A stretch of DNA of 64,000 nt from Nitrospiraceae bacterium (GTDB taxonomy: Bacteria; Nitrospirota; Nitrospiria; Nitrospirales; Nitrospiraceae): the NCBI GenBank assembly GCA_050246315.1, contig JBFWWG010000008.1:32001-96000 (forward strand). Direction: 5' to 3'. Position 1 is the first letter of the stretch; each line of letters starts with the position of its first letter. Below the pieces are notes generated by a model. That model made no database searches, had not been told where the DNA came from, and saw nothing but the letters and a program-made list of their open reading frames with translations. The position numbers and the translations under genes are program-made. Shown in pieces: positions 19,973 to 55,980 of this stretch.

Positions 19973-21210
19973 AGAGCAGCCCCTTTATACTTTGGACACA
20001 GTTGCAGCGCCCTGCGTCGAAATTGCCACACATTTGCGAAACGAATGAATCACTCTAGCAGGCACAGCTAAGGAAGGTCTGATCAATTCAAAATTCTAGG
20101 CCGCGATCAGCCAGATTCCCCGTCTTTGGTACACCTACCAATCGAATTTGGGAATTATTCAGACCTTCCCTAATCAAGGGCGTATCGCTTCAGGATAGCT
20201 CTGAAGGTCAGCATGTCCGCGCAGCAGTTTGTCTCGCGAGCATCTTCGTTTACGAGGGATGAGGTACCGGCCCATTCTCGGATGGGTCATTCTCTCATAA
20301 CGGCTGCGCTCCAATGGGACCTGCGCTCCCGCTCGTTCTGGCCCCAGCAACTCTACCCTGATCTCAGCGTCGAAATCTGCGAGCGGCTAATTATGCATTC
20401 CAGGCGCTGACGCGCAGCCTTAAGAGGTATCGAGCCGGGATTCTAAACCCGGAAGCCTACCGCGTACTGACACACGCTGCCTACTGTCGACTGCCACTCA
20501 CTTCGCACTAGGAAACTGGCTGTTCAGCTATCAACTTCCTTACTCAAGGAAGCCGCTCGAAACCGTCGCAGACGGTCACCTACCTGGGCGCCTGCAATCG
20601 AAGACATGATGGTGGTTCGTCACAAGATTCAAAAACAAACACGATACGCTACAAAGCATGTCTAGAAAAATAACGCCTGAAGCGGCAGGTTCTCTCACTG
20701 ATAACCGGGCATCTCTTATTCAAAAATACAACAGTAGCTTCCATTCCTCGCAAAAGACCGTCTGAACAGGGACGATTTGTCCTCTCATGAAAGCTGTGGG
20801 CAGGAGTGCACCACATCTGCCGGATACCCGTGCAGGGCGTACATCGATGAGAACTTGTCACTCAATTACTGGAATCATATCGATCGGAACCACTCACCAT
20901 ACGATTCAGTCATCTGCGACGGTGCGAAGATCTATATCTCAGGTAGAACTAGTGCATAGGTACACAGACACGATTGTTCATGCAGTGAGTCCCGAATATG
21001 CCATAGCTGATCATTCAACTGTTAACATTAGGTATTACAATGTAACCATGCAACCTTGCACTAAGCGCATTGAGACCATTCTTTCATGGTGTGGCTCCCT
21101 CTGATCACATACCACAACTTGGAGAGGGAGAATCGTCCCTTATCCAACCTCAGAAGCAATTGCCGCAGAGTCGCCAAGAATCGGCTGCGTGTGTGAGCGG
21201 CATGAAGATG

Positions 21211-47465: not shown

Positions 47466-48221
47466 GTGACCAAATCCAAACCCAAACCATCGCCCGGTTC
47501 CGTCCTCAGTCCTCGTCGCCGGCCGGGTCTCTTCATTTCCCTGGAAGGAATCGAAGGGAGTGGCAAAACGACCCAGTCGGCGAGGTTGGCCGACTGGCTG
47601 AGTCGAGAGGGATATGAGGTCATCCGGACGCGTGAGCCCGGAGGAACGCCGCTCGCCGAAGCCTTGCGTGACTCGTTATTGAACGCGACAGATGAACCGG
47701 TGGCCCCTTGGACGGAAGTCCTGCTGGTATTGGCCGCACGGGCGCAGCATGTCGCACAGGTGATTCGTCCGACGCTGCAACGAGGCGCCATCGTCCTGTG
47801 CGATCGGTATGTCGATTCCACCTTGGCCTATCAGGCCTATGGACGAGGCCTTCCCTCGGCGATGCTCTTGCGCCTGCATCGACAAGTCACCGATAATCTG
47901 ATGCCCGACCTGACCCTGCTGTTTGACGTGCCGGTGACGGTGGGGCTACGACGCCGTCGAGAGGATGGGACCAAGACCAACCGTTTGGACGAGGAGACCG
48001 GGCAGTTCCATGAACGTGTGCGGCATGGATTTCAGGCTCTCGCGCGGAAGTATCCGTCCCGCATACACGTGATCCCCTCCGGACGAAGCCCGGAGCGGAT
48101 TCACACGGATGTGAAACGTTTGCTGCTGGCCGTCCTGACTCGCAGGAAGGACGCACTGCGTAGACAGAGTCCGACTTCCACTCTTCCGCGACAATTGATG
48201 AGAGCGCATGCCGTTCGCTGA
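47466..48221 (+). CDS. tmk: Thymidylate kinase
   Basis: EGIEGSGKTTQ, TREPGGT, CDRYVDSTLAYQ. Confidence 0.97.
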   Translation: MTKSKPKPSPGSVLSPRRRPGLFISLEGIEGSGKTTQSARLADWLSREGYEVIRTREPGGTPLAEALRDSLLNATDEPVAPWTEVLLVLAARAQHVAQVIRPTLQRGAIVLCDRYVDSTLAYQAYGRGLPSAMLLRLHRQVTDNLMPDLTLLFDVPVTVGLRRRREDGTKTNRLDEETGQFHERVRHGFQALARKYPSRIHVIPSGRSPERIHTDVKRLLLAVLTRRKDALRRQSPTSTLPRQLMRAHAVR

Positions 48222-49251
48222 CGTCGTCGGACATGACCGGGCCAAGAGCCTGTTACGATCGGCCATACTCAACGAGCGCGTGGCCCACGCCTATCTGTTC
48301 CACGGTCCGGACCGGATTGGAAAGCGGCTGCTGGCGTTGCGATTCATGCAGGCCATGGCATGCGAGGCAACTTCACCATCCGATGAACCGGATGCCTGCG
48401 GCCGCTGCCGTTCCTGCCACCAGTTCGATCAGGGCACCCATCCGGACCTCTCCCTGATCCGGCCAGATCCCGAGCAATCGTCCCCACAGATCAAAATCGA
48501 GGACATCCGAGAGCTGGAAAGCCGCCTGATCTATCGCCCGTTGATCGCGCCGCGGAAGTTTTGCCTGATCGACGATGCGGACGCGATGAACCTCCCCGCC
48601 GCGAACGCCTTATTGAAAACCTTGGAAGAACCACCGGGGTATGGGCTGCTCATCCTCGTATCGAGCCGGCCCTACTCAATGCCGGCGACGATCCGCTCCC
48701 GTTGCCAGAGCCTGCGCTTGACCCCGCCGCCATTTGAGCAAAGCGTCCGCCACCTGATGAACATGCGTGGCTGGTCGGAGCCGGACGCCACCGTCCTGAC
48801 GAGCCGCACCGAAGGCCGGCTCGGAGAAGCGCTCATGACCGACCTCGCATCGATCCAAGAGCGACACGATAGTCTTGCGACGCTGCTGGCGCCGCACGCC
48901 TTGCGCTCCACCACGGCGACCCTGACCGCTGCAGAAGCGCTCTCAAAAGAGGACCGACTCAGCGACAGCCTGGATCGGCTTTCCCGATGGGTGCGCGACC
49001 TCGTCCTGGTGGGAATCGGCAGCCGCACGGAATCCTTGACCTATGCCTCGCATCGGCCGCTGCTGGAAACCATCGCCAAGCCAGCGGACAGCGATCGGCT
49101 GCTGGGGCTGCTGCAAGAGATTGACGCCATCCAACGAAACAGCACCCGTAACTTGAATGCTCAACTTGTGCTCGAACACCTCTTACTCCAGCTCCGCGAA
49201 GCCGTCGCCCCCGATCTGCGCACCCCGGTTCCGAGCCCGCGTCATGAATAA
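48208..49251 (+). CDS. holB: DNA polymerase III subunit delta'
   Basis: HAYLF, CGRCRSC, HPD, ANALLKTLEEP, TIRSRCQ; follows tmk. Confidence 0.95.
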   Translation: MPFADVVGHDRAKSLLRSAILNERVAHAYLFHGPDRIGKRLLALRFMQAMACEATSPSDEPDACGRCRSCHQFDQGTHPDLSLIRPDPEQSSPQIKIEDIRELESRLIYRPLIAPRKFCLIDDADAMNLPAANALLKTLEEPPGYGLLILVSSRPYSMPATIRSRCQSLRLTPPPFEQSVRHLMNMRGWSEPDATVLTSRTEGRLGEALMTDLASIQERHDSLATLLAPHALRSTTATLTAAEALSKEDRLSDSLDRLSRWVRDLVLVGIGSRTESLTYASHRPLLETIAKPADSDRLLGLLQEIDAIQRNSTRNLNAQLVLEHLLLQLREAVAPDLRTPVPSPRHE

Positions 49252-49379
49252 TGCGGGCGAGCGCCAGTGTGCGGTCGTCAAATCCCCGGCTGACTTCTCT
49301 TCGCTCCAAACCCGCTATCCATTCTCTGCCTTTCGAAGCGACCTCCGGAAAATCAATACTCATGCCCGACCCCGTTACA
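49065..49379 (+). repeat. Direct repeat copy 1 (315 bp: holB 3' end plus repeat element A1)
   Basis: Matches 50150..50464; one mismatch seen by eye. Confidence 0.95.
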
Positions 49380-49450
49380 GTGACCCTGTGTTTCGGGCAA
49401 ATGCCCAGCAGGCTGATGACCGCCGCGAGCACGTGAGAACGAGCCGGTGG

Positions 49451-49689
49451 TCAGACGTAGAAATGAGGGCGCAAGTCATCTTCGGAGATGAATCGACTGG
49501 CTTGGCGAAAGATGGCGCGGAGCGTTCCAGGGTCTAACTCCGATGGAGCGGAATGGTCAAGACCTGGCGCGCGTCGGTCACTTCGCGGACAAGCTTGGCG
49601 TGGCTGCCCCGCTGGGAGGTTTGGCGAAAGCCGAAGCGGTGGGGAATGCTGAGGACGTCGTGGCCGCTGAGTCTACGAAGCTTGGGCAT
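49451..49689 (-). pseudogene. hicA: HicA-family mRNA interferase toxin, frameshifted
   Basis: MPKLRRLSG...QRGSHAKL...TIPLHR, then TAG at 49534-49536; the shifted frame continues ELDPGTLRAIFRQA...FYV-stop at 49451. Confidence 0.85.
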
Positions 49690-49918
49690 GCAGCGGGTCC
49701 AGCTCCATCGTCAAGACCACGGTGGGGTGCTCTCGCAGACCGAAGGTGGCGGGCGATTCTCCCTCCAGGTGCAAGGCGGTGGCCTCTTGGAGATTCTTGA
49801 CGGTTTCATCCAGCGTGCGCCCCTGAGTGACCACGGCCAGTTCGAGGCATTCTGCGACATAGCCGACGTCATCCCCGGGCCGAATGACGGCCTTGATGGT
49901 TTGTTGCAGCGGACTCAC
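49673..49918 (-). CDS. hicB: HicB-family antitoxin
   Basis: GYVAECLEL.VVTQGRTLDETVKNLQEA; AAGGAGG RBS; overlaps hicA start. Confidence 0.85.
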   Translation of the reverse strand: MSPLQQTIKAVIRPGDDVGYVAECLELAVVTQGRTLDETVKNLQEATALHLEGESPATFGLREHPTVVLTMELDPLHAQAS

Positions 49919-50030
49919 ACGACCTCCTTGGCGGCAATCTTAGGTGCGCAGAATACCGTGGCCGCTCTCTGGGCGCAAGCGACGGTTGGAGCCACCGGAT
50001 ATGCCCTGATCCGCCGCCATGCCTAGGAGT

Positions 50031-50142
50031 GAGTGCGCAGTCGTCAGATCCTGGCCGGCTGCCCCCCTCCCCAAGCGGGCATCCATTCCCTTCCTTTCGG
50101 AGCGGCCGTCTGTAAGTCAATACTCAGGCCTGACCCCGTTAC
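50031..50142. repeat. Repeat element B1 (homologous to A), ending TCAATACTCAGGCCTGACCCCGTTAC
   Basis: Aligns with 49266..49378; last 69 bp recur at 50467..50535. Confidence 0.85.
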
Positions 50143-50149
50143 TGTCGCA

Positions 50150-50464
50150 GGAAACCATCGCCAAGCGAGCGGACAGCGATCGGCTGCTGGGGCTGCTGCA
50201 AGAGATTGACGCCATCCAACGAAACAGCACCCGTAACTTGAATGCTCAACTTGTGCTCGAACACCTCTTACTCCAGCTCCGCGAAGCCGTCGCCCCCGAT
50301 CTGCGCACCCCGGTTCCGAGCCCGCGTCATGAATAATGCGGGCGAGCGCCAGTGTGCGGTCGTCAAATCCCCGGCTGACTTCTCTTCGCTCCAAACCCGC
50401 TATCCATTCTCTGCCTTTCGAAGCGACCTCCGGAAAATCAATACTCATGCCCGACCCCGTTACA
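50150..50464 (+). repeat. Direct repeat copy 2 (holB 3' fragment plus element A2)
   Basis: Duplicate of 49065..49379; encodes the holB C-terminus ...LLQEIDAIQRNSTRNLN...PSPRHE-stop. Confidence 0.95.
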
Positions 50465-50466
50465 CG

Positions 50467-50535
50467 AGCGGGCATCCATTCCCTGCCTTTCGGAGCGGCC
50501 GTCTGTAAGTCAATACTCAGGCCTGACCCCGTTAC
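50467..50535. repeat. Partial repeat element B2 (69 bp)
   Basis: Matches 50074..50142 with one mismatch. Confidence 0.9.
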
Positions 50536-50816
50536 GGATTGGCGATCATGAATTGCATGGCGGATTTCTTTGTGGAACTGGAAAGTGCCGGGGTTAAAAA
50601 CACAAGCAATAGCAGACCCGCCCACCATGTATAGAAGTACATGACTGCGAACGCAGCAGGTATCGAAAGAATCCACACCCAACTCCAGAACATGTGCGCC
50701 GCTTGATACCGCTTAGGCAACATTTTTGAGTTTGCGATTTGAAGAGCCTTTGAGCGATCCACGTCGACTTCCAGTTTTCCTTCGTTCCAAGACCGCACAA
50801 ATTCAGAATGCTCCAT
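50532..50816 (-). CDS. Small membrane protein, second ORF of integron cassette 3 (possibly truncated)
   Basis: TAATG coupling to upstream ORF; two TM segments; stop TAA lies inside repeat B2. Confidence 0.7.
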   Translation of the reverse strand: MEHSEFVRSWNEGKLEVDVDRSKALQIANSKMLPKRYQAAHMFWSWVWILSIPAAFAVMYFYTWWAGLLLLVFLTPALSSSTKKSAMQFMIANP

Positions 50817-51064
50817 TAGGCCTCCGTCACTTTCGAGCGGGCTTTGGCTTGTAATTTGTCGGAAAGCATCAGAAGGCCGATTCCGGGAGCCAATGTGATT
50901 ATCGTTACGACATAGTTGGCCACGTTAAATGGGCTCAGGAGGTCCTGAACGCCGGAAAATCCCTCCTTCATCCAGACCCCAACTATGCCCACCAAAATCA
51001 GGAGACCGGCCAACACAAGCCAGACATACCCAAGCACTTTGCATGTGATTGCCCAGAACTTCAT
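50816..51064 (-). CDS. Small two-TM membrane protein, first ORF of integron cassette 3
   Basis: AAGGGAG RBS then ATG at 51064, just after the attC crossover GTTAGGG. Confidence 0.75.
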   Translation of the reverse strand: MKFWAITCKVLGYVWLVLAGLLILVGIVGVWMKEGFSGVQDLLSPFNVANYVVTIITLAPGIGLLMLSDKLQAKARSKVTEA

Positions 51065-51078
51065 TTCGACTCCCTTAG

Positions 51079-51147
51079 CCCTAACGTCTGAATTCACCGG
51101 CCTTGCGCGGCTTTATGCGCAAGGTCCGGTGGAATGATGGGTTGGGC
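51079..51147 (-). other. attC: attC site (end of cassette 2)
   Basis: R'' GCCCAAC, L'' ATTCCACC, inner stem CCTTGCGC/GCGCAAGG, L' GGTGAAT, R' GTTAGGG; one extrahelical base in L''. Confidence 0.92.
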
Positions 51148-51933
51148 CTAGGTTGCATCAAGTACCCCAGCGGCCACGAGGTCTCTTTTGATCTCCAAGA
51201 GCTTTTCGGAGATGTTGTGAGTAAATCGCTTTTGAATAATTCCGCCAAAGTCTGAAAACAGCGATGTTCCTTCCTTGAGAAGAAGCATTGCACCCGACCG
51301 GTCAAGCCGACCACAGAACCACCCCAGTTCATAAATGACGTTGGGGCGAGCTTGAAGATAGACGTCCTTTCCCGAATTGACTTCATCATCCGGCGTGAAG
51401 ACTGCGATCGCGTAACTGCACGTTTTTGCGTAGTGCTCGAATTTCTCTACTACCGTCTTGCAGCCAGCGTCCGGCTGCTCCTGCAATACGATTGGGTTAA
51501 GACGGAACTCCGATTTCAAGATGTCTTTCAGTTCTCGCCATTTGGCTTCATCTCGGCCATGTATTACGAAAATATTTTCTCGACGGCGCAGTGCATCTTC
51601 GGCCTTCTTCCTAGCCATTAAGTCTGGGTTGCGGGTAAGGCGAGTGAGCGAGGCCCGAACAACTGAGAGAATGTTTTCAACACTCTTGTATGACGGAGAG
51701 CCAGTGAAGTTGGACACACCGTCGTTGAATTCGCCAACGATCTGAGCAGAGTAGGCATTGCTACCGAGAACGTCGTTGAATAGGTCTACAAGTTCCCGAA
51801 CGTACTGTCGAAACAGCGGATCGTCACCGCGACCGATGTGGATGCCATCACGGCTGCGCGTAAACCTGGAGAGTATTCCAGCGAGGTCGCCTTCATACCG
51901 CTTGAGTTCAGCAATGATTGTCTCACCGTCCAA
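51148..51933 (-). CDS. Predicted nucleotide-binding protein with TIR-like domain (CAP12/PycTIR type), cassette 2
   Basis: IFVIHGRDE, VEKFE, AIAVFTPDD, QARPNVIYELGWF, FSDFGGI; AGGAGG RBS before TTG at 51933. Confidence 0.88.
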   Translation of the reverse strand: MDGETIIAELKRYEGDLAGILSRFTRSRDGIHIGRGDDPLFRQYVRELVDLFNDVLGSNAYSAQIVGEFNDGVSNFTGSPSYKSVENILSVVRASLTRLTRNPDLMARKKAEDALRRRENIFVIHGRDEAKWRELKDILKSEFRLNPIVLQEQPDAGCKTVVEKFEHYAKTCSYAIAVFTPDDEVNSGKDVYLQARPNVIYELGWFCGRLDRSGAMLLLKEGTSLFSDFGGIIQKRFTHNISEKLLEIKRDLVAAGVLDAT

Positions 51934-51948
51934 AGTGCTGCCTCCTAG

Positions 51949-52008
51949 GCCCAACGTTCCGCATCAGCCGCGCCGCTTCTTGGCGTCGGCTGCATGCGGC
52001 TGTTAGCT
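51949..52008 (-). other. attC: attC site (end of cassette 1)
   Basis: R'' AGCTAAC, L'' CATGCAGC, L' GCTGATG, R' GTTGGGC; GATGTCAGCTAAC is the perfect complement of the cassette start GTTAGCTGACATC. Confidence 0.92.
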
Positions 52009-52743
52009 GACATCGTCTCCATACCTCATATGCTCGCCCCATTTGTAAAGCCAGGATTGGTATTCGGCGAGGCCATCAATGTCCGGAAACAAGGAGGCCT
52101 TGTGTATGCCGCACTTGTTCAAATTAAGCTTGAGGGTTAACGGGCCACGTCCGATTGTGATTCGCACAACGTTCTCCGGCTTGAAAGCATTCGCGGGATT
52201 CTTGTGTATGGTGAATAAACCGGTTTGAGCAGGTATCCGCGGGCTAATGTGTGGCGGGTAATACATCATCACATCGTCGAGGGCGTCGAGGTCGTTGTGT
52301 TTTTCAGGGGGCGCCAGTGGGACGTCTTTGACGGCGTAGATCATGGGCGGGACGGCGCGGTCACGCGCGTCTTCGACGGCAAAGTAAGCCGCAACAAAAA
52401 GGCTTTCGCTCCAGTCGAGCAGGCGGGTAAACATCCCGTGATGTTGTGCCAAAGCGAGCCACTCAAGCCGGTTGTCGGGAACATGCCTGACGTATGGTCC
52501 AGCGGCGCGCATGAAATGCCGCACCATTGTTTCCTCGGCGTTGCGGTCATAAAGAAGCTCGCCGCCGCTCAGGGCTTTGCGCGACCCCGGTCGACCGATC
52601 TTGGGAATGAGCTCGTAGTTGCTCTGACGCACTCCACGGAAGATCCAACTGCCGTCCTTACGAAAGGGCTGAACGAGGCTGGCCAGCTCCTCAAACGAGT
52701 TTATGGTTCGATCCTTCCGGATACTGATACCTATCTCCGCCAA
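52003..52743 (-). CDS. FRG domain-containing protein, cassette 1
   Basis: WIFRGV, LALAQHHGMFTRLLDWS, AAYFAV, RIPAQTGLFT, SLFPDIDG; stop lies within R''. Confidence 0.9.
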   Translation of the reverse strand: MAEIGISIRKDRTINSFEELASLVQPFRKDGSWIFRGVRQSNYELIPKIGRPGSRKALSGGELLYDRNAEETMVRHFMRAAGPYVRHVPDNRLEWLALAQHHGMFTRLLDWSESLFVAAYFAVEDARDRAVPPMIYAVKDVPLAPPEKHNDLDALDDVMMYYPPHISPRIPAQTGLFTIHKNPANAFKPENVVRITIGRGPLTLKLNLNKCGIHKASLFPDIDGLAEYQSWLYKWGEHMRYGDDVS

Positions 52744-52848: not shown

Positions 52849-53871
52849 ATGTCAATCACTTCGTCCCAGCCGAGGAAACCGCTGTCCAGGAGTTATACAC
52901 CTCAAGAGGCCAGGCCCTCCGATACCCTCTTCGACCAGGTGCGCGACGCCATCCGCGTCAAGCATTACAGTCTCCGGACCGAGCATTCCTATCTCCAATG
53001 GGTGCGCCAGTTCGTCGGTTACCACAAGCGCCACCCCGGCGCGTTGGGCGAAACAGAGGTGCGGGATTTTCTCACGCACCTGGCCCGAGACCGCCGCGTC
53101 AGCGCGTCCACGCAAAACCAGGCCTTCAGCGCGATTCTGTTTCTCTTTCGGGAGGTCTTGAAGAAAGACATCGGCGAGTTGCAAGGCGTCGAGCGGGCTC
53201 AGAACCGAGATCGCATCCCGCTCGTGCTGTCGCGGGAGGAAGTGCGTGCCGTGTTGTCCCATCTCCAAGGCACGCCGCGCGTGATGGCGGACCTGCTCTA
53301 CGGCTCGGGGCTGCGACTCATGGAATGTGTGCGATTGCGCGTGAAAGATATCGATATTCCACGACGGCAGCTCATCGTGCGAGAGGGGAAGGGCGGCGAT
53401 GATCGCGCGACCCTGTTGCCCCAGGCCGTGATCGCGCCGCTGCAACGCCAACTCGAGTATGCGAAGGCCCTCCACCAGCAGGACCTGCGCGACGGCTATG
53501 GCGAGGTGTACCTGCCCTTCGCGCTCGAGCGGAAATATCCCCATGCGGAGACGGAATGGGGGTGGCAGTATGTGTTCCCGTCGAAACAGCGGTCGGTCGA
53601 TCCGCGCTCGGGCAAGGTTCGCCGTCATCATCTCGACGAGAAGGTGCTGCAACGGGCGATGAAGGAGGCGGTGCGCGCCGCTGGGCTGACCAAGCCGGCC
53701 AGTTGCCACACGCTCCGACACAGTTTCGCGACCCATCTCCTGGAAGCGGGCTACGACATACGGACCGTGCAAGAGTTGCTCGGCCACAAAGACGTGCAGA
53801 CCACCATGATCTACACGCACGTGCTGGCCCACGGTCCTAAAGGGGTACGGAGCCCGTTGGACATGACGTGA
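52849..53871 (+). CDS. intI: Integron integrase
   Basis: [10 protein letters not shown], integron-specific patch [12 protein letters not shown]...[33 protein letters not shown]. Confidence 0.97.
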
Positions 53872-54009
53872 GTGTGGGCTTCTCTTTAGACTACCGTTTG
53901 CCGCCCTCCGCTGGCCCTCTCCCCTAGCCCGCGTCGGATGACTGCCATCCCACAGCCTCGTGCGCTAGCTTTCGCTCACGCGGTCCTGCTATCTTGACAA
54001 ATCAACCAG

Positions 54010-55980
54010 ATGGACCGCCCGTTTTTCATCACGACACCGATCTATTACGTCAACGACGTGCCGCACATCGGGCACGCCTACACCACTATTGCGGCCGACG
54101 TGCTGGCGCGGTATCACCGCTTGCGCGGCAGGCAGGTTTTTTTCCTCACCGGGGTCGATGAACACGGGCAGAAGGTCCAGCAGGCGGCCGCCAAGGCCGG
54201 CATCGACCCGCAGGCCTACTGCGACAAGCTCGCGCCGCAATTCGAACGACTCTGGCAGCCGGAGCGCCTCAACATCTCGAACGATGCGTTCATCCGCACG
54301 ACCCATAAGCAACACCAGGAGATCGTTCAGCGGTACCTCCGCGAATTGTTCGATCGACAATTGATTTATGGCGACGACTACACCGGGTGGTACTGCACCT
54401 TCGACGAGCGGTTCTGGACCGAAAAGGATGTGGTGGACGGACTTTGCCCGGACTGCAAACGGCCGGTCGAACGACTGAGCGAGCGAAATTATTTTTTCAA
54501 GATGGGACAGTATCAGGATCGGCTCATCGCGCACATCGACGCGCATCAGGACTTCATTCGCCCGGAGTCGCGACGAAACGAGGTCCTGGGCTTCCTCAAG
54601 ACTCAAACACTCGGCGACCTCTCGATCTCGCGTCCCAAGTCGCGGCTCTCGTGGGGCATCGAGCTGCCTTTCGATCCGGACTATGTCACCTATGTCTGGT
54701 TCGACGCCTTGGTGAATTACATCTCGGCGCTGGAGTACCTTCCGCGCGAGAACCCGGCCGGCCACCAATTCTGGCCGGCTGACCTGCATCTGGTCGGCAA
54801 GGACATCCTCACGACCCATGCGGTCTATTGGTCCACGATCCTGATGGCGCTCGGTCTTGAGCTACCGAAGACCATCTTTGCACACGGTTGGTGGACCGTG
54901 GACGGCGAGAAGATGTCGAAGAGCCGCGGGAACGTCGTGGATCCGAACGTGATGATCGACCGGTTTGGCACCGATGCCTTCCGCTACTTCCTGCTTCGCG
55001 AGGTGCCGTTCGGACACGACGGGGATTTCTCGGAACCCGGCATGGTCGGGCGCATCAACAGCGAATTGGCTGACGACCTCGGGAACCTGTTGAGCCGAAG
55101 CCTCACGATGATCGAGCGATTCGCCGACGGCGTCATCCCTCACGCCAAGCCCACGCCCGAACTTTCTCGACAAGCCGGCGAGGTTGTCTCGCGTGTCTTC
55201 GCGCATCTGGATCGTGTTGAATTCGGCAAGGCGCTCGAAGCCGCCTGGGAGCTCGTGCAATCGACGAATCAGTACATCGACAAGACTGCCCCATGGAAGT
55301 TGGCTAAACAACCCGATGCGAAAACCCATCTCGACGAAGTGCTCTTTCACCTTGCCGCCACATTGAAAACTCTGGGTCTGATTCTCGTCCCCTTCATGCC
55401 AACCAAAGGGAATGAAATCCTGAAACAGATCGGAGTTGCCCTGAAGCCTTCTGACTGTCTTCCTGACGCCGCACTCAATTGGGACGACCTCCCGGGTCAC
55501 AGGATTGCCAAGGGAAGCACGCTGTTTCCGAAAATCGACCAGCCTATACGAGGAGCCAAGCCCGTGACCGATTCATCGACACCAGCACCCGCACCGACCA
55601 CGCCGGCAGCTCAGCCGGCCGCCGCTGCGCCTTCAACCGCAATGTCCACGGCCCCGCCGCAGATCACCATCGACGAGTTCATGAAGATCCAGCTCAAGAC
55701 CGCCAAGGTCCTCACGGCCGAACGGGTGCCCCGTTCCGAAAAGCTCATCAAGCTCCAGGTGGATCTCGGGTCCGAGCAGCGTCAGATTGTCGCGGGGATC
55801 GGCAAGAAATATGAGCCGGAGCAACTGGTCGGCCGCACGATCGTGATCGTCGCCAACCTCAAGCCAGCCAAGCTCATGGGCATCGAGTCACAGGGGATGG
55901 TCTTGGCGGCGGGCGATGCGGAGGTGAAGGGACTCGTCGGGATCGTCGAAGACGTGGACCCCGGCACGAAGGTCAAATGA
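54010..55980 (+). CDS. metG: Methionine--tRNA ligase
   Basis: PHIGH, YVWFDAL, KMSKS, C-terminal tRNA-binding domain. Confidence 0.98.
   Translation: MDRPFFITTPIYYVNDVPHIGHAYTTIAADVLARYHRLRGRQVFFLTGVDEHGQKVQQAAAKAGIDPQAYCDKLAPQFERLWQPERLNISNDAFIRTTHKQHQEIVQRYLRELFDRQLIYGDDYTGWYCTFDERFWTEKDVVDGLCPDCKRPVERLSERNYFFKMGQYQDRLIAHIDAHQDFIRPESRRNEVLGFLKTQTLGDLSISRPKSRLSWGIELPFDPDYVTYVWFDALVNYISALEYLPRENPAGHQFWPADLHLVGKDILTTHAVYWSTILMALGLELPKTIFAHGWWTVDGEKMSKSRGNVVDPNVMIDRFGTDAFRYFLLREVPFGHDGDFSEPGMVGRINSELADDLGNLLSRSLTMIERFADGVIPHAKPTPELSRQAGEVVSRVFAHLDRVEFGKALEAAWELVQSTNQYIDKTAPWKLAKQPDAKTHLDEVLFHLAATLKTLGLILVPFMPTKGNEILKQIGVALKPSDCLPDAALNWDDLPGHRIAKGSTLFPKIDQPIRGAKPVTDSSTPAPAPTTPAAQPAAAAPSTAMSTAPPQITIDEFMKIQLKTAKVLTAERVPRSEKLIKLQVDLGSEQRQIVAGIGKKYEPEQLVGRTIVIVANLKPAKLMGIESQGMVLAAGDAEVKGLVGIVEDVDPGTKVK

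Follow-up and report, generated by a model that had tools for sequence, protein, structure and literature searches.

The window analysed here, a 64,000-nucleotide (nt) stretch of a Nitrospiraceae bacterium genome (GenBank assembly GCA_050246315.1, contig JBFWWG010000008.1, positions 32,001 to 96,000), contains an integron at the 3' end of holB whose cassette array breaks off in a cluster of four copies of one motif. On its sequence and genomic arrangement, this motif is the terminal inverted repeat (TIR1) of a TIRtron, in which a RAYT-like gene of the TIRYT type is flanked by inverted repeats, and the four copies in the window are solo end-repeats. A duplication, a deletion, and a truncated cassette gene at this place have a common breakpoint beside the repeat. 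We favor, with a probability of about 0.5, the reading that the DNA beside a TIRYT end-repeat is a breakage hot spot, at which nicking by the TIRYT and imprecise repair would cause local duplications and deletions and truncate the end of the integron array.

Array of motif copies at the distal end of the integron

The 26-nt string TCAATACTCA(T/G)GCC(C/T)GACCCCGTTAC occurs four times in the window, always on the + strand (49353-49378, 50117-50142, 50438-50463, and 50510-50535), whereas no occurrence is expected by chance: 100 dinucleotide shuffles gave zero matches at up to three mismatches. The motif forms the 3' end of two elements, A (copies A1 and A2) and B (copies B1 and B2), which align over about 113 nt with 73% identity. 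The array consists of the following features.

49266..49378, + strand: element A1, about 113 nt, with a TIR1 copy (core 49353-49373) and then GTTAC
49381..49389, + strand: degenerate second tip box TGACCCTGT, directly after A1; comparable repeated tip boxes are present at other copies
50030..50142, + strand: element B1, a paralogue of A, with a TIR1 copy (core 50117-50137) and then GTTAC
50143..50146, + strand: 4-nt filler TGTC where B1 meets the copied piece of holB; read against 49058-49066, it matches neither side
50147..50463, + strand: copy of the holB 3' end and of A (A2 = 50351-50463), duplicating 49062-49378
50464..50466, + strand: 3-nt filler ACG separating A2 from B2 and matching neither side
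50467..50535, + strand: element B2, comprising only the final 69 nt of B, with a TIR1 core at 50510-50530 and then GTTAC
50536..50543, + strand: 8 nt GGATTGGC, part of neither B nor the cassette open reading frame (ORF)

Both A1 and A2 lie inside a 318-nt duplicate (49062-49379 and 50147-50464, 99.4% identical) that includes the last 190 nt of holB, and B2 represents only the 3'-terminal part of B, with 98.6% identity to 50074-50142. Downstream of GTTAC the four copies have unrelated continuations: AGTGACC..., TGTCGCAGG..., ACGAGCGG..., and GGATTGGC.... On the - strand, which is the strand of the integron, all units begin with GTAAC-GGGGTC and have variable ends, two of them being 3'-truncated copies of the other two. 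A preliminary description of this DNA, made from its letters alone, had reported four elements ending at one motif (ends 49378, 50142, 50463, and 50535), a degenerate motif after A1, non-matching bases at two junctions, and segments starting at unrelated points, one carrying hicB-hicA, one copying the holB 3' end, and one beginning inside B; all these observations were confirmed.

The array is followed by three cassettes and then by the integrase gene intI, and thus is located at the far (distal) end of the integron. The last element, as had been noticed before, adjoins an integron cassette; in addition, we found that this cassette is truncated. Its ORF encodes 94 amino acids (aa), compared with 116 aa in almost all of the 120 homologues among the matches listed; the homology ends at I91, and the TAA stop codon lies inside the GTAAC of B2. 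The joint therefore cuts a gene, and the attC site is absent there. Homologues of the truncated protein were found only in a large protein collection and in none of 150 other genomes of the family. One protein from another data set (P0014, 93 aa, on a 13-kb contig) is 90-92% identical to it and ends one residue past the same point (...QFMID-L), so the truncation may be common to a diverged lineage.

Several other interpretations of A and B were considered. The two elements have no match in Rfam at E values up to 1 and no sigma-70-like site, and the extended A/B pattern ATCCATTCYCTKCCTTTCGRAGCG has zero matches in a genome-contig collection. A sigma-54 -24/-12 element on the reverse strand, TGGCATGAGTATTGA, was dropped since by eye it has GA in place of the conserved GC. 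The translations of A and B showed, also by eye, no similarity to the N-terminus of the TIRYT or to a diverged holB end.

The motif belongs to a TIRtron

The Y1_Tnp profile has no match on this part of contig C8, which contains the window, in agreement with the preliminary description, where no transposase was seen in the window and a Y1/HUH enzyme was supposed to act from elsewhere. Such a gene is present in the same genome (label G000; 30 contigs, 4.39 Mb). A 309-aa ORF at C20:15818-16744 matches Pfam Y1_Tnp with 52.6 bits (cut-off 23) and NCBIfam REP_Tyr_transpos with 70 bits, which is under the equivalog cut-off of 80. The HVH and GRYQ motifs are visible by eye in its translation. Its C-terminus resembles the helix-turn-helix (HTH) domain Bac_DnaA_C (28.8 bits, under the cut-off of 31.5; DnaA domain IV, PDB 3pvp, E value 0.0038).

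Inverted copies of the repeat bracket the C20 gene (C20:15774-15794 on the - strand and C20:16778-16798 on the + strand), and the core of the window copies differs from them by 0-2 mismatches over 21 nt. The tip GGGGTCAG, found in the B-type, C20, and most other copies, fits the consensus GGGGWSAS, and the A-type tip GGGGTCGG has one mismatch to it. A Y1_Tnp gene with an HTH-like tail between inverted GGGGWSAS-tipped copies is of the TIRYT/TIRtron type. In the available text of the original report, TIRtrons are RAYT-like genes flanked by terminal inverted repeats, many of them with the tip GGGGWSAS (Di Nocera, De Gregorio & Rocco 2013, PMC3733652), and the accessible part of a later classification assigns most TIRYTs to TnpA_REP subclass 2.1, with Bac_DnaA_C/HTH tails (Quentin et al. 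2018, PMC6006769). The GGGG(A/T)CAG-type motifs that the preliminary description had mentioned near Y1/RAYT-like genes correspond to this published tip.

The genome holds 16 copies of the 21-nt core at up to three mismatches, and it contains three TIRYT repeat families in addition to TIR1. Toxin-antitoxin genes are present within 1 kb of 5 of its 10 solo TIR1 sites. The search of the genome proposed earlier yielded further copies and a Y1 gene; the sharp boundary after GTTAC that it had anticipated does not recur. Elsewhere the conserved unit ends at GACCCC, and GTTAC follows only at the window locus: it was found at none of the 12 other copies in the genome and none of 42 copies from relatives, whose flanks are unrelated. 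The motif followed by GTTAC also had zero matches in a metagenome-contig and a genome-contig collection, from which records of this genome or its close kin may be missing. As GTTAC is confined to the window locus, the parallel with insertion of IS608 next to TTAC, drawn in the preliminary description, fails.

The origin of the GTTAC flank may be sought in the locus itself. The reverse complement of 50536-50545 (GGATTGGCGA) is TCGCCAATCC, and the other strand therefore reads TCGCCAATCC-GTAAC-GGGGTC. In G002, a relative whose holB on contig C41 is 98% identical, the tip of a different TIRtron family is located 50 nt after holB in the context TCGTCGCCAAT-GTAAC-GGGGTC. The sequence TCGCCAATCC weakly resembles this tip flank (20 of 22 nt, E value 0.14). 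A similar word, TCGTCA(A/G)ATCC, is found at the beginning of both A and B. This comparison suggests that GTAAC/GTTAC belongs to the locus rather than to the repeat, perhaps to a lost palindromic site at the end of the array.

Instability on the tip side of the repeat in related genomes

The core was detected at up to two mismatches in 22 of 61 sampled genomes of the family, representing 15 of 39 genera (with the unpublished genome G009 counted in), and a reversed control gave none. Similarity among the copies stops sharply at both sides of aATAAG-TCAATACTCATGCCTGACCCC. Orthologues of the C20 gene in G001 and G013 (63-65% identity) are likewise bracketed by inverted copies. At 57% identity or more, orthologues are present in only five of the 61 genomes (G000, G001, G003, G011, and G013), and a wider tally covers 19 of 61, including the unpublished G070.

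Two observations concern the DNA adjoining the tip. The last 6 nt of the repeat together with the flank are tandemly duplicated (period 8-30, at least 80% identity) on the GACCCC side in 9 of 58 distinct copies, one of the 58 coming from G009, and on the other side in 0 of 58. The same stutter is seen in a second TIR family. Further, the complete genome of G001, a member of the same genus, contains a 1,815-bp tandem duplication with 100% identity (G001:C1:3240559-3244190), comprising a TIRtron and 824 bp of neighboring DNA. It starts at (TG)|GGGTC of the outer tip box, its other end is arbitrary, and the joint has 2 nt (TG) of microhomology. As far as can be read from these copies, the one-sided stutter and the G001 duplication show the tip side to be unstable.

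Modules are found between direct motif copies in two other relatives: a higB-like toxin gene with an HTH antitoxin gene in G059:C55, and a small ORF in G044:C75.

Presence of the array in public sequencing runs

Twenty public runs from seven studies (wastewater, sludge, bioreactor, landfill, and aquatic metagenomes) contain 92-95% of the sampled words of 49000-50700. The junction pieces 50113-50197 (or -50205), 50435-50515, and 50506 onward, as well as a 773-nt piece covering 49350-50122, were recovered in all four Logan runs, which come from four studies; the left sides of these junction pieces measure 29-30 nt, slightly below the 31-nt bridging rule. In the same four runs the depth of the holB'/A unit is roughly double that of the adjoining DNA (23 versus 14, 45 versus 19, 26 versus 13, and 130 versus 71-80). 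The whole array is spanned by no single contig, and for the order of its parts we rely on the assembly of the window together with the junction pieces. A collapsed or chimeric repeat could be suspected in a 30-contig assembly with 318-nt and 69-nt repeats in the region. However, given the recovery of the junctions in runs from four studies and the doubled depth, an assembly artefact, which the preliminary description had named as a possible refutation, is very unlikely and hardly needs to be reckoned with.

Two of the four runs (X3 and X7) also contain a variant contig of low depth (6 versus 58-145), in which the end of B and GTTACTGTCG (window 50108-50147) are followed by about 350 nt of unrelated sequence, including a 255-nt loose end. 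A 20-nt piece of this loose end was found neither in this genome nor in the compared loci. The contig represents either a second allele of the B joint or a relative's copy.

One base distinguishes the two copies of the holB end. Position 49086 is C in the working holB and G in the duplicate (50171), in G002:C41, and in G001, and C>G is also seen in runs X7 and X12. The functional copy of holB, not the duplicate, thus has the derived base.

Proposed breakage beside the repeat and alternative explanations

We propose that the copies lie where the cassette array of the holB-3'-end integron breaks off, each rearrangement having one breakpoint directly after GACCCCGTTAC, 5 nt outside the tip. The present order could be reached in two steps. 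In the first, about 1,085 bp [49062..50142], from the interior of holB to the end of B, would have been duplicated in tandem and joined via TGTC, giving holB-A-hicBA-B-holB'-A-hicBA-B. In the second, the new copy would have lost about 695 bp, from just after the GTTAC of A2 to 42 nt inside B, with joining via ACG, and B2 would have resulted. In an earlier event the flank of B would have been fused to the truncated cassette ORF. Considering the duplication, the deletion, the older cassette fusion, and the divergence of A and B, we count at least three independent events that have a breakpoint at GTTAC| or no more than a few bases from it, and in this respect the anchoring of breakpoints beside the motif, supposed in the preliminary description, was borne out.

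At the molecular level, the TIRYT, acting in trans, would nick one strand just outside the repeat tip. The nick could be converted into a broken replication fork or a one-ended break, and its repair by imprecise joining or template switching would result in duplications and deletions with one end fixed and the other arbitrary. Such nicking and repair would account for the fixed and arbitrary ends and for the filler bases, and likewise for the duplication in G001 and the stutter on one side only. In particular, the 3-4 filler bases at the joints point to repair rather than to precise strand transfer.

Several points weigh against this explanation. Cutting by the TIRYT is a step that we infer, and the available text of PMC3733652 and PMC6006769 gives no TIRYT biochemistry. 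The distance from core to breakpoint varies, being 5 nt here, whereas in G001 the break lies after a second box 13 nt out. Since the motif is present in 22 of 61 genomes but an orthologue of the enzyme in 5 of 61, many copies have no visible cognate enzyme, to which incompleteness of the assemblies may contribute. As GTTAC is locus-specific, the position of the break could be determined by some property of the locus and not by the repeat; one candidate is a lost palindrome or half of an attC site, read as TCGCCAATCC-GTAAC here and ...GCCAAT-GTAAC in G002. The filler at the B joint may partly be native flank, as GTTACTGTCG is common to the variant contig. The identity of A and B is only 73%, and breakage of this kind does not account for where B and hicBA came from. 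Finally, the two-event path is the simplest that we found and not the only one possible.

An alternative, in line with the preliminary description, is one-ended copy-and-paste by a Y1/HUH enzyme, similar to that of IS91/ISCR elements or Helitrons, in which a strand is moved to another repeat end, building a cassette-like array and picking up toxin-antitoxin genes. The fixed GTAAC-GGGGTC start and variable end of the units resemble a fixed origin with variable termination, and the modules between direct copies in G059:C55 and G044:C75, as well as the toxin-antitoxin genes near half of the solo sites, are in agreement with it. However, all copied DNA comes from no more than 1.1 kb away, non-templated bases stand at the joints, and hairpin ends are lacking. 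The GTTAC ends are absent from the two collections, and the hicBA DNA was not found in 40 relatives. No excised or relocated module flanked by the motif was detected: the higBA module of G059 occurs in none of 200 further genomes, and among all 201 it has only its self-match, apart from a repeat of about 107 nt. We therefore regard one-ended transposition as doubtful. The preliminary description had proposed a non-integron system that captures neighboring DNA by copying and stacks it at its own end motif. Such a gene-capture system is not supported: the gene and its repeat form a TIRtron of the described type, the copies are partial and of local origin, and tandem duplication plus deletion explains the stacked segments. 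A version in which TIRYT end-repeats serve as fixed nick or origin sites, so that adjacent DNA is copied and re-joined at another repeat end and modules such as toxin-antitoxin genes become bracketed and stacked at ragged integron ends, appears still more doubtful; if true, repeat-end copying would be the equivalent, for an HUH nuclease, of cassette capture by integrons.

Ordinary illegitimate or homologous recombination that does not involve the TIRYT is possible, though unlikely. It could have proceeded through a Campbell-type circle with the holB 3' end or through exchange of strain alleles, the repeat then having no part in it or offering no more than a short stretch of homology. Integration of a circle via holB homology would be expected to leave a direct duplication like that of 318 nt around hicBA and B, and at C14:47777/48883 hicAB is bracketed by a similar duplication, 106 nt of a gene 3' end, whose joint contains no repeat. 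The imperfect holB-end repeat of about 50 nt around the whole island and the base at 49086, C in holB and G in the duplicate, G002, and G001, also fit this explanation. Nevertheless, it gives no reason for the coincidence of three or more independent joints at one phosphodiester next to the repeat, for the start of the G001 duplication at a tip box, or for the tip-side stutter in 9 of 58 copies versus 0 of 58. Moreover, an exchange between A and B would duplicate hicBA and create hybrid repeats, neither of which is seen, and so cannot give the present order. Recombination by the integron integrase at secondary G|TT sites, with GTTAC as a degenerate core site or the remains of a terminal attC, is decidedly improbable. 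In its favor, intI is intact and only 2.3 kb distant, the array forms a continuation of the cassette array, each joint is beside GTT, and TCGCCAATCC-GTAAC here and GTTAC-ATTGGCGA in G002 (read in the same sense) could represent the two sides of a palindromic site now lost. On the other hand, the cores GTTACAG, GTTACTG, GTTACAC, and GTTACGG deviate from GTTRRRY, the orientation of the units is opposite to the recombining strand of the array, and filler bases are present. The cassette ORF is cut, unlike in attC recombination, and GTT is missing from the break in G001. The folds of A and B do not surpass those of shuffled sequences (z scores from +0.9 to -0.1; +1.0/+0.1 for B2), whereas real attC sites have z scores from -3.8 to -5.5. 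In the same way, A, B, and B2 were rejected as attC sites, with no single-strand hairpin (z scores of about 0 to +1.9, compared with -3.75 to -5.5 for the true attC sites of the array).

Comparison with known systems

The C20 gene and its repeat share with TIRtrons/TIRYTs the RAYT-like HUH/Y1 gene of about 310 aa, the inverted repeats with a GGGGWSAS tip, and a moderately abundant repeat family with single, paired, and grouped copies; the C-terminus resembles their Bac_DnaA_C-type HTH, though with a score under the cut-off. They differ in that the available text of PMC3733652 and PMC6006769 describes no repeat-anchored breakpoints, duplications, tip stutter, links to integron ends or toxin-antitoxin genes, or activity. 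A literature search for RAYT or REP-associated tyrosine transposases together with integrons likewise yielded nothing on such a link. REP/REPIN-RAYT systems (Nunvar 2010, Bertels & Rainey 2011, Bertels 2017; PMC5581495) similarly have a Y1 gene, as a rule in single copy, with flanking copies of a short repeat of its own, and this repeat is scattered through the genome in trans. However, REPs are palindromic hairpins with a GTAG head and hundreds of copies, whereas TIR1 is non-palindromic, non-folding, and present in 16 copies.

The IS200/IS605 family, with IS608 TnpA as its example, uses HUH/Y1 chemistry and cleaves at a fixed short distance from the recognized end. In contrast to its members, A and B have no subterminal hairpins (z scores +0.86, -0.02, +1.85, and -0.10 on both strands, no better than shuffles), TTAC is found only at the window locus, the C20 enzyme is twice as long and has an HTH-like tail, and the ends are inverted and not direct. 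IS91/ISCR elements have a Y2 Rep-like transposase and oriIS/terIS ends. Together with complex class 1 integrons they resemble the present locus in one fixed end, a variable other end, and partial duplication beside an integron. The Y2_Tnp profile (PF04986) had no match in this genome, and none in 14 control genomes either.

TIRYT genes are common in many phyla, and the literature that we searched contains no demonstrated activity. The locus, together with the tip-anchored duplication of G001 and the one-sided stutter, constitutes natural evidence for DNA breakage at a defined point beside the tip, and it indicates which oligonucleotide and which position to examine for the probable cut of a widespread nuclease family. 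If breakage beside the repeat is indeed the cause, TIRYT repeats are able to reshape integron arrays at their ends and to cause the duplication or truncation of genes nearby.

The island between holB and metG

The island separating holB from metG has a length of about 4.7 kb and the order A1, hicBA, B1, holB'/A2, B2, three cassettes on the - strand, an attI or attC-like site, and intI. The comparison of the holB-metG interval suggested in the preliminary description revealed an empty site in two relatives, G001 and G003, where holB directly precedes metG. The genes and sites of the region are listed below.

48208..49251, + strand: holB (DNA polymerase III delta'), Pfam DNA_pol3_delta2 166 bits; the last 12 or so codons come from the inserted island
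49452..49689, - strand: hicA toxin gene, frameshifted; the open frame covers only 49534-49689 (51 aa; Pfam HicA_toxin 27.2 bits, profile positions 2-39 of 58), and the C-terminal part is in another frame
49673..49918, - strand: hicB-like antitoxin gene, so named from its position adjoining hicA and from reading of the sequence; weak Pfam match only (DUF7387, E value 0.0018)
50532..50816, - strand: last cassette ORF, 3'-truncated
50816..51097, - strand: small membrane-protein ORF in the same cassette as the truncated ORF, with no family match
51078..51147, - strand: attC site, GCCCTAAC...GTTGGGC; fold z scores -5.4/-5.5, 0 of 200 shuffles as good
51148..51954, - strand: cassette ORF, CAP12/Pycsar-type TIR domain, Pfam 119.6 bits
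51949..52009, - strand: attC site, an inverted repeat with fold z score -3.75
52003..52743, - strand: cassette ORF, FRG domain, Pfam 90.3 bits
52772..52835, - strand: attI region or attC-like site beside intI, AGCTAAC...GTTAGCG, fold z score -2.3
52849..53871, + strand: integron integrase gene intI, TIGR02249 462.4 bits (cut-off 265), also matched by Pfam
53892..54009, + strand: remnant of the ancestral holB 3' end and holB-metG spacer, from alignment with G001
54010..55980, + strand: metG, Pfam tRNA-synt_1g 353 bits

The two intact cassettes encode the TIR-domain (CAP12/Pycsar-type) and FRG-domain proteins, and judging from these domains the integron cargo appears to be defence-like. The direct repeat of the holB 3' end that brackets the whole island is located at 49203-49251 and 53892-53942. 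The new C-terminal tail of holB is supplied by the island, and this tail is common to G002:C41. The flanking repeat looks like an att-type duplication left by an element that integrated into the holB end.

Other repeats of the genome

The second TIRYT repeat family of this genome, GGGTCAGGTCTTGCAATCA, has 13 copies and forms pairs, with a spacing of about 470-490 nt, on either side of Y1 genes that are short or broken (C1:501004-507982; C5:134177-134668). Several of these pairs are located 1-8 kb from attC-like sites of a second integron (C1:508632-512754; intI 515191-516135), and one is beside an intI fragment (C5:132231-132365). Concerning a possible preference of TIRs for attC sites, the flanks of this family near the second integron contain no clear attC halves. 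In a simple scan, the attC-like sites of the second integron are on the 3' side of its intI, which is on the - strand, corresponding to the less common 'inverted integrase' layout.

On contig C14, the 106-nt duplication around the inserted hicA-hicB genes (47777-47882 and 48883-48988) has 97% identity. About 330 nt beyond it, a TIR1 copy (C14:49314) abuts an Xre-type antitoxin gene that has lost its 5' part. A repeat of about 106 nt resembling miniature inverted-repeat transposable elements occurs in the window at 20067-20172 (C8:52067-52172) and in at least 11 other places of the genome, with 94-99% identity among copies. One of its copies starts 13 nt outside the TIR1 tip at C16:38141, and another repeat family is placed likewise at C14:93822.

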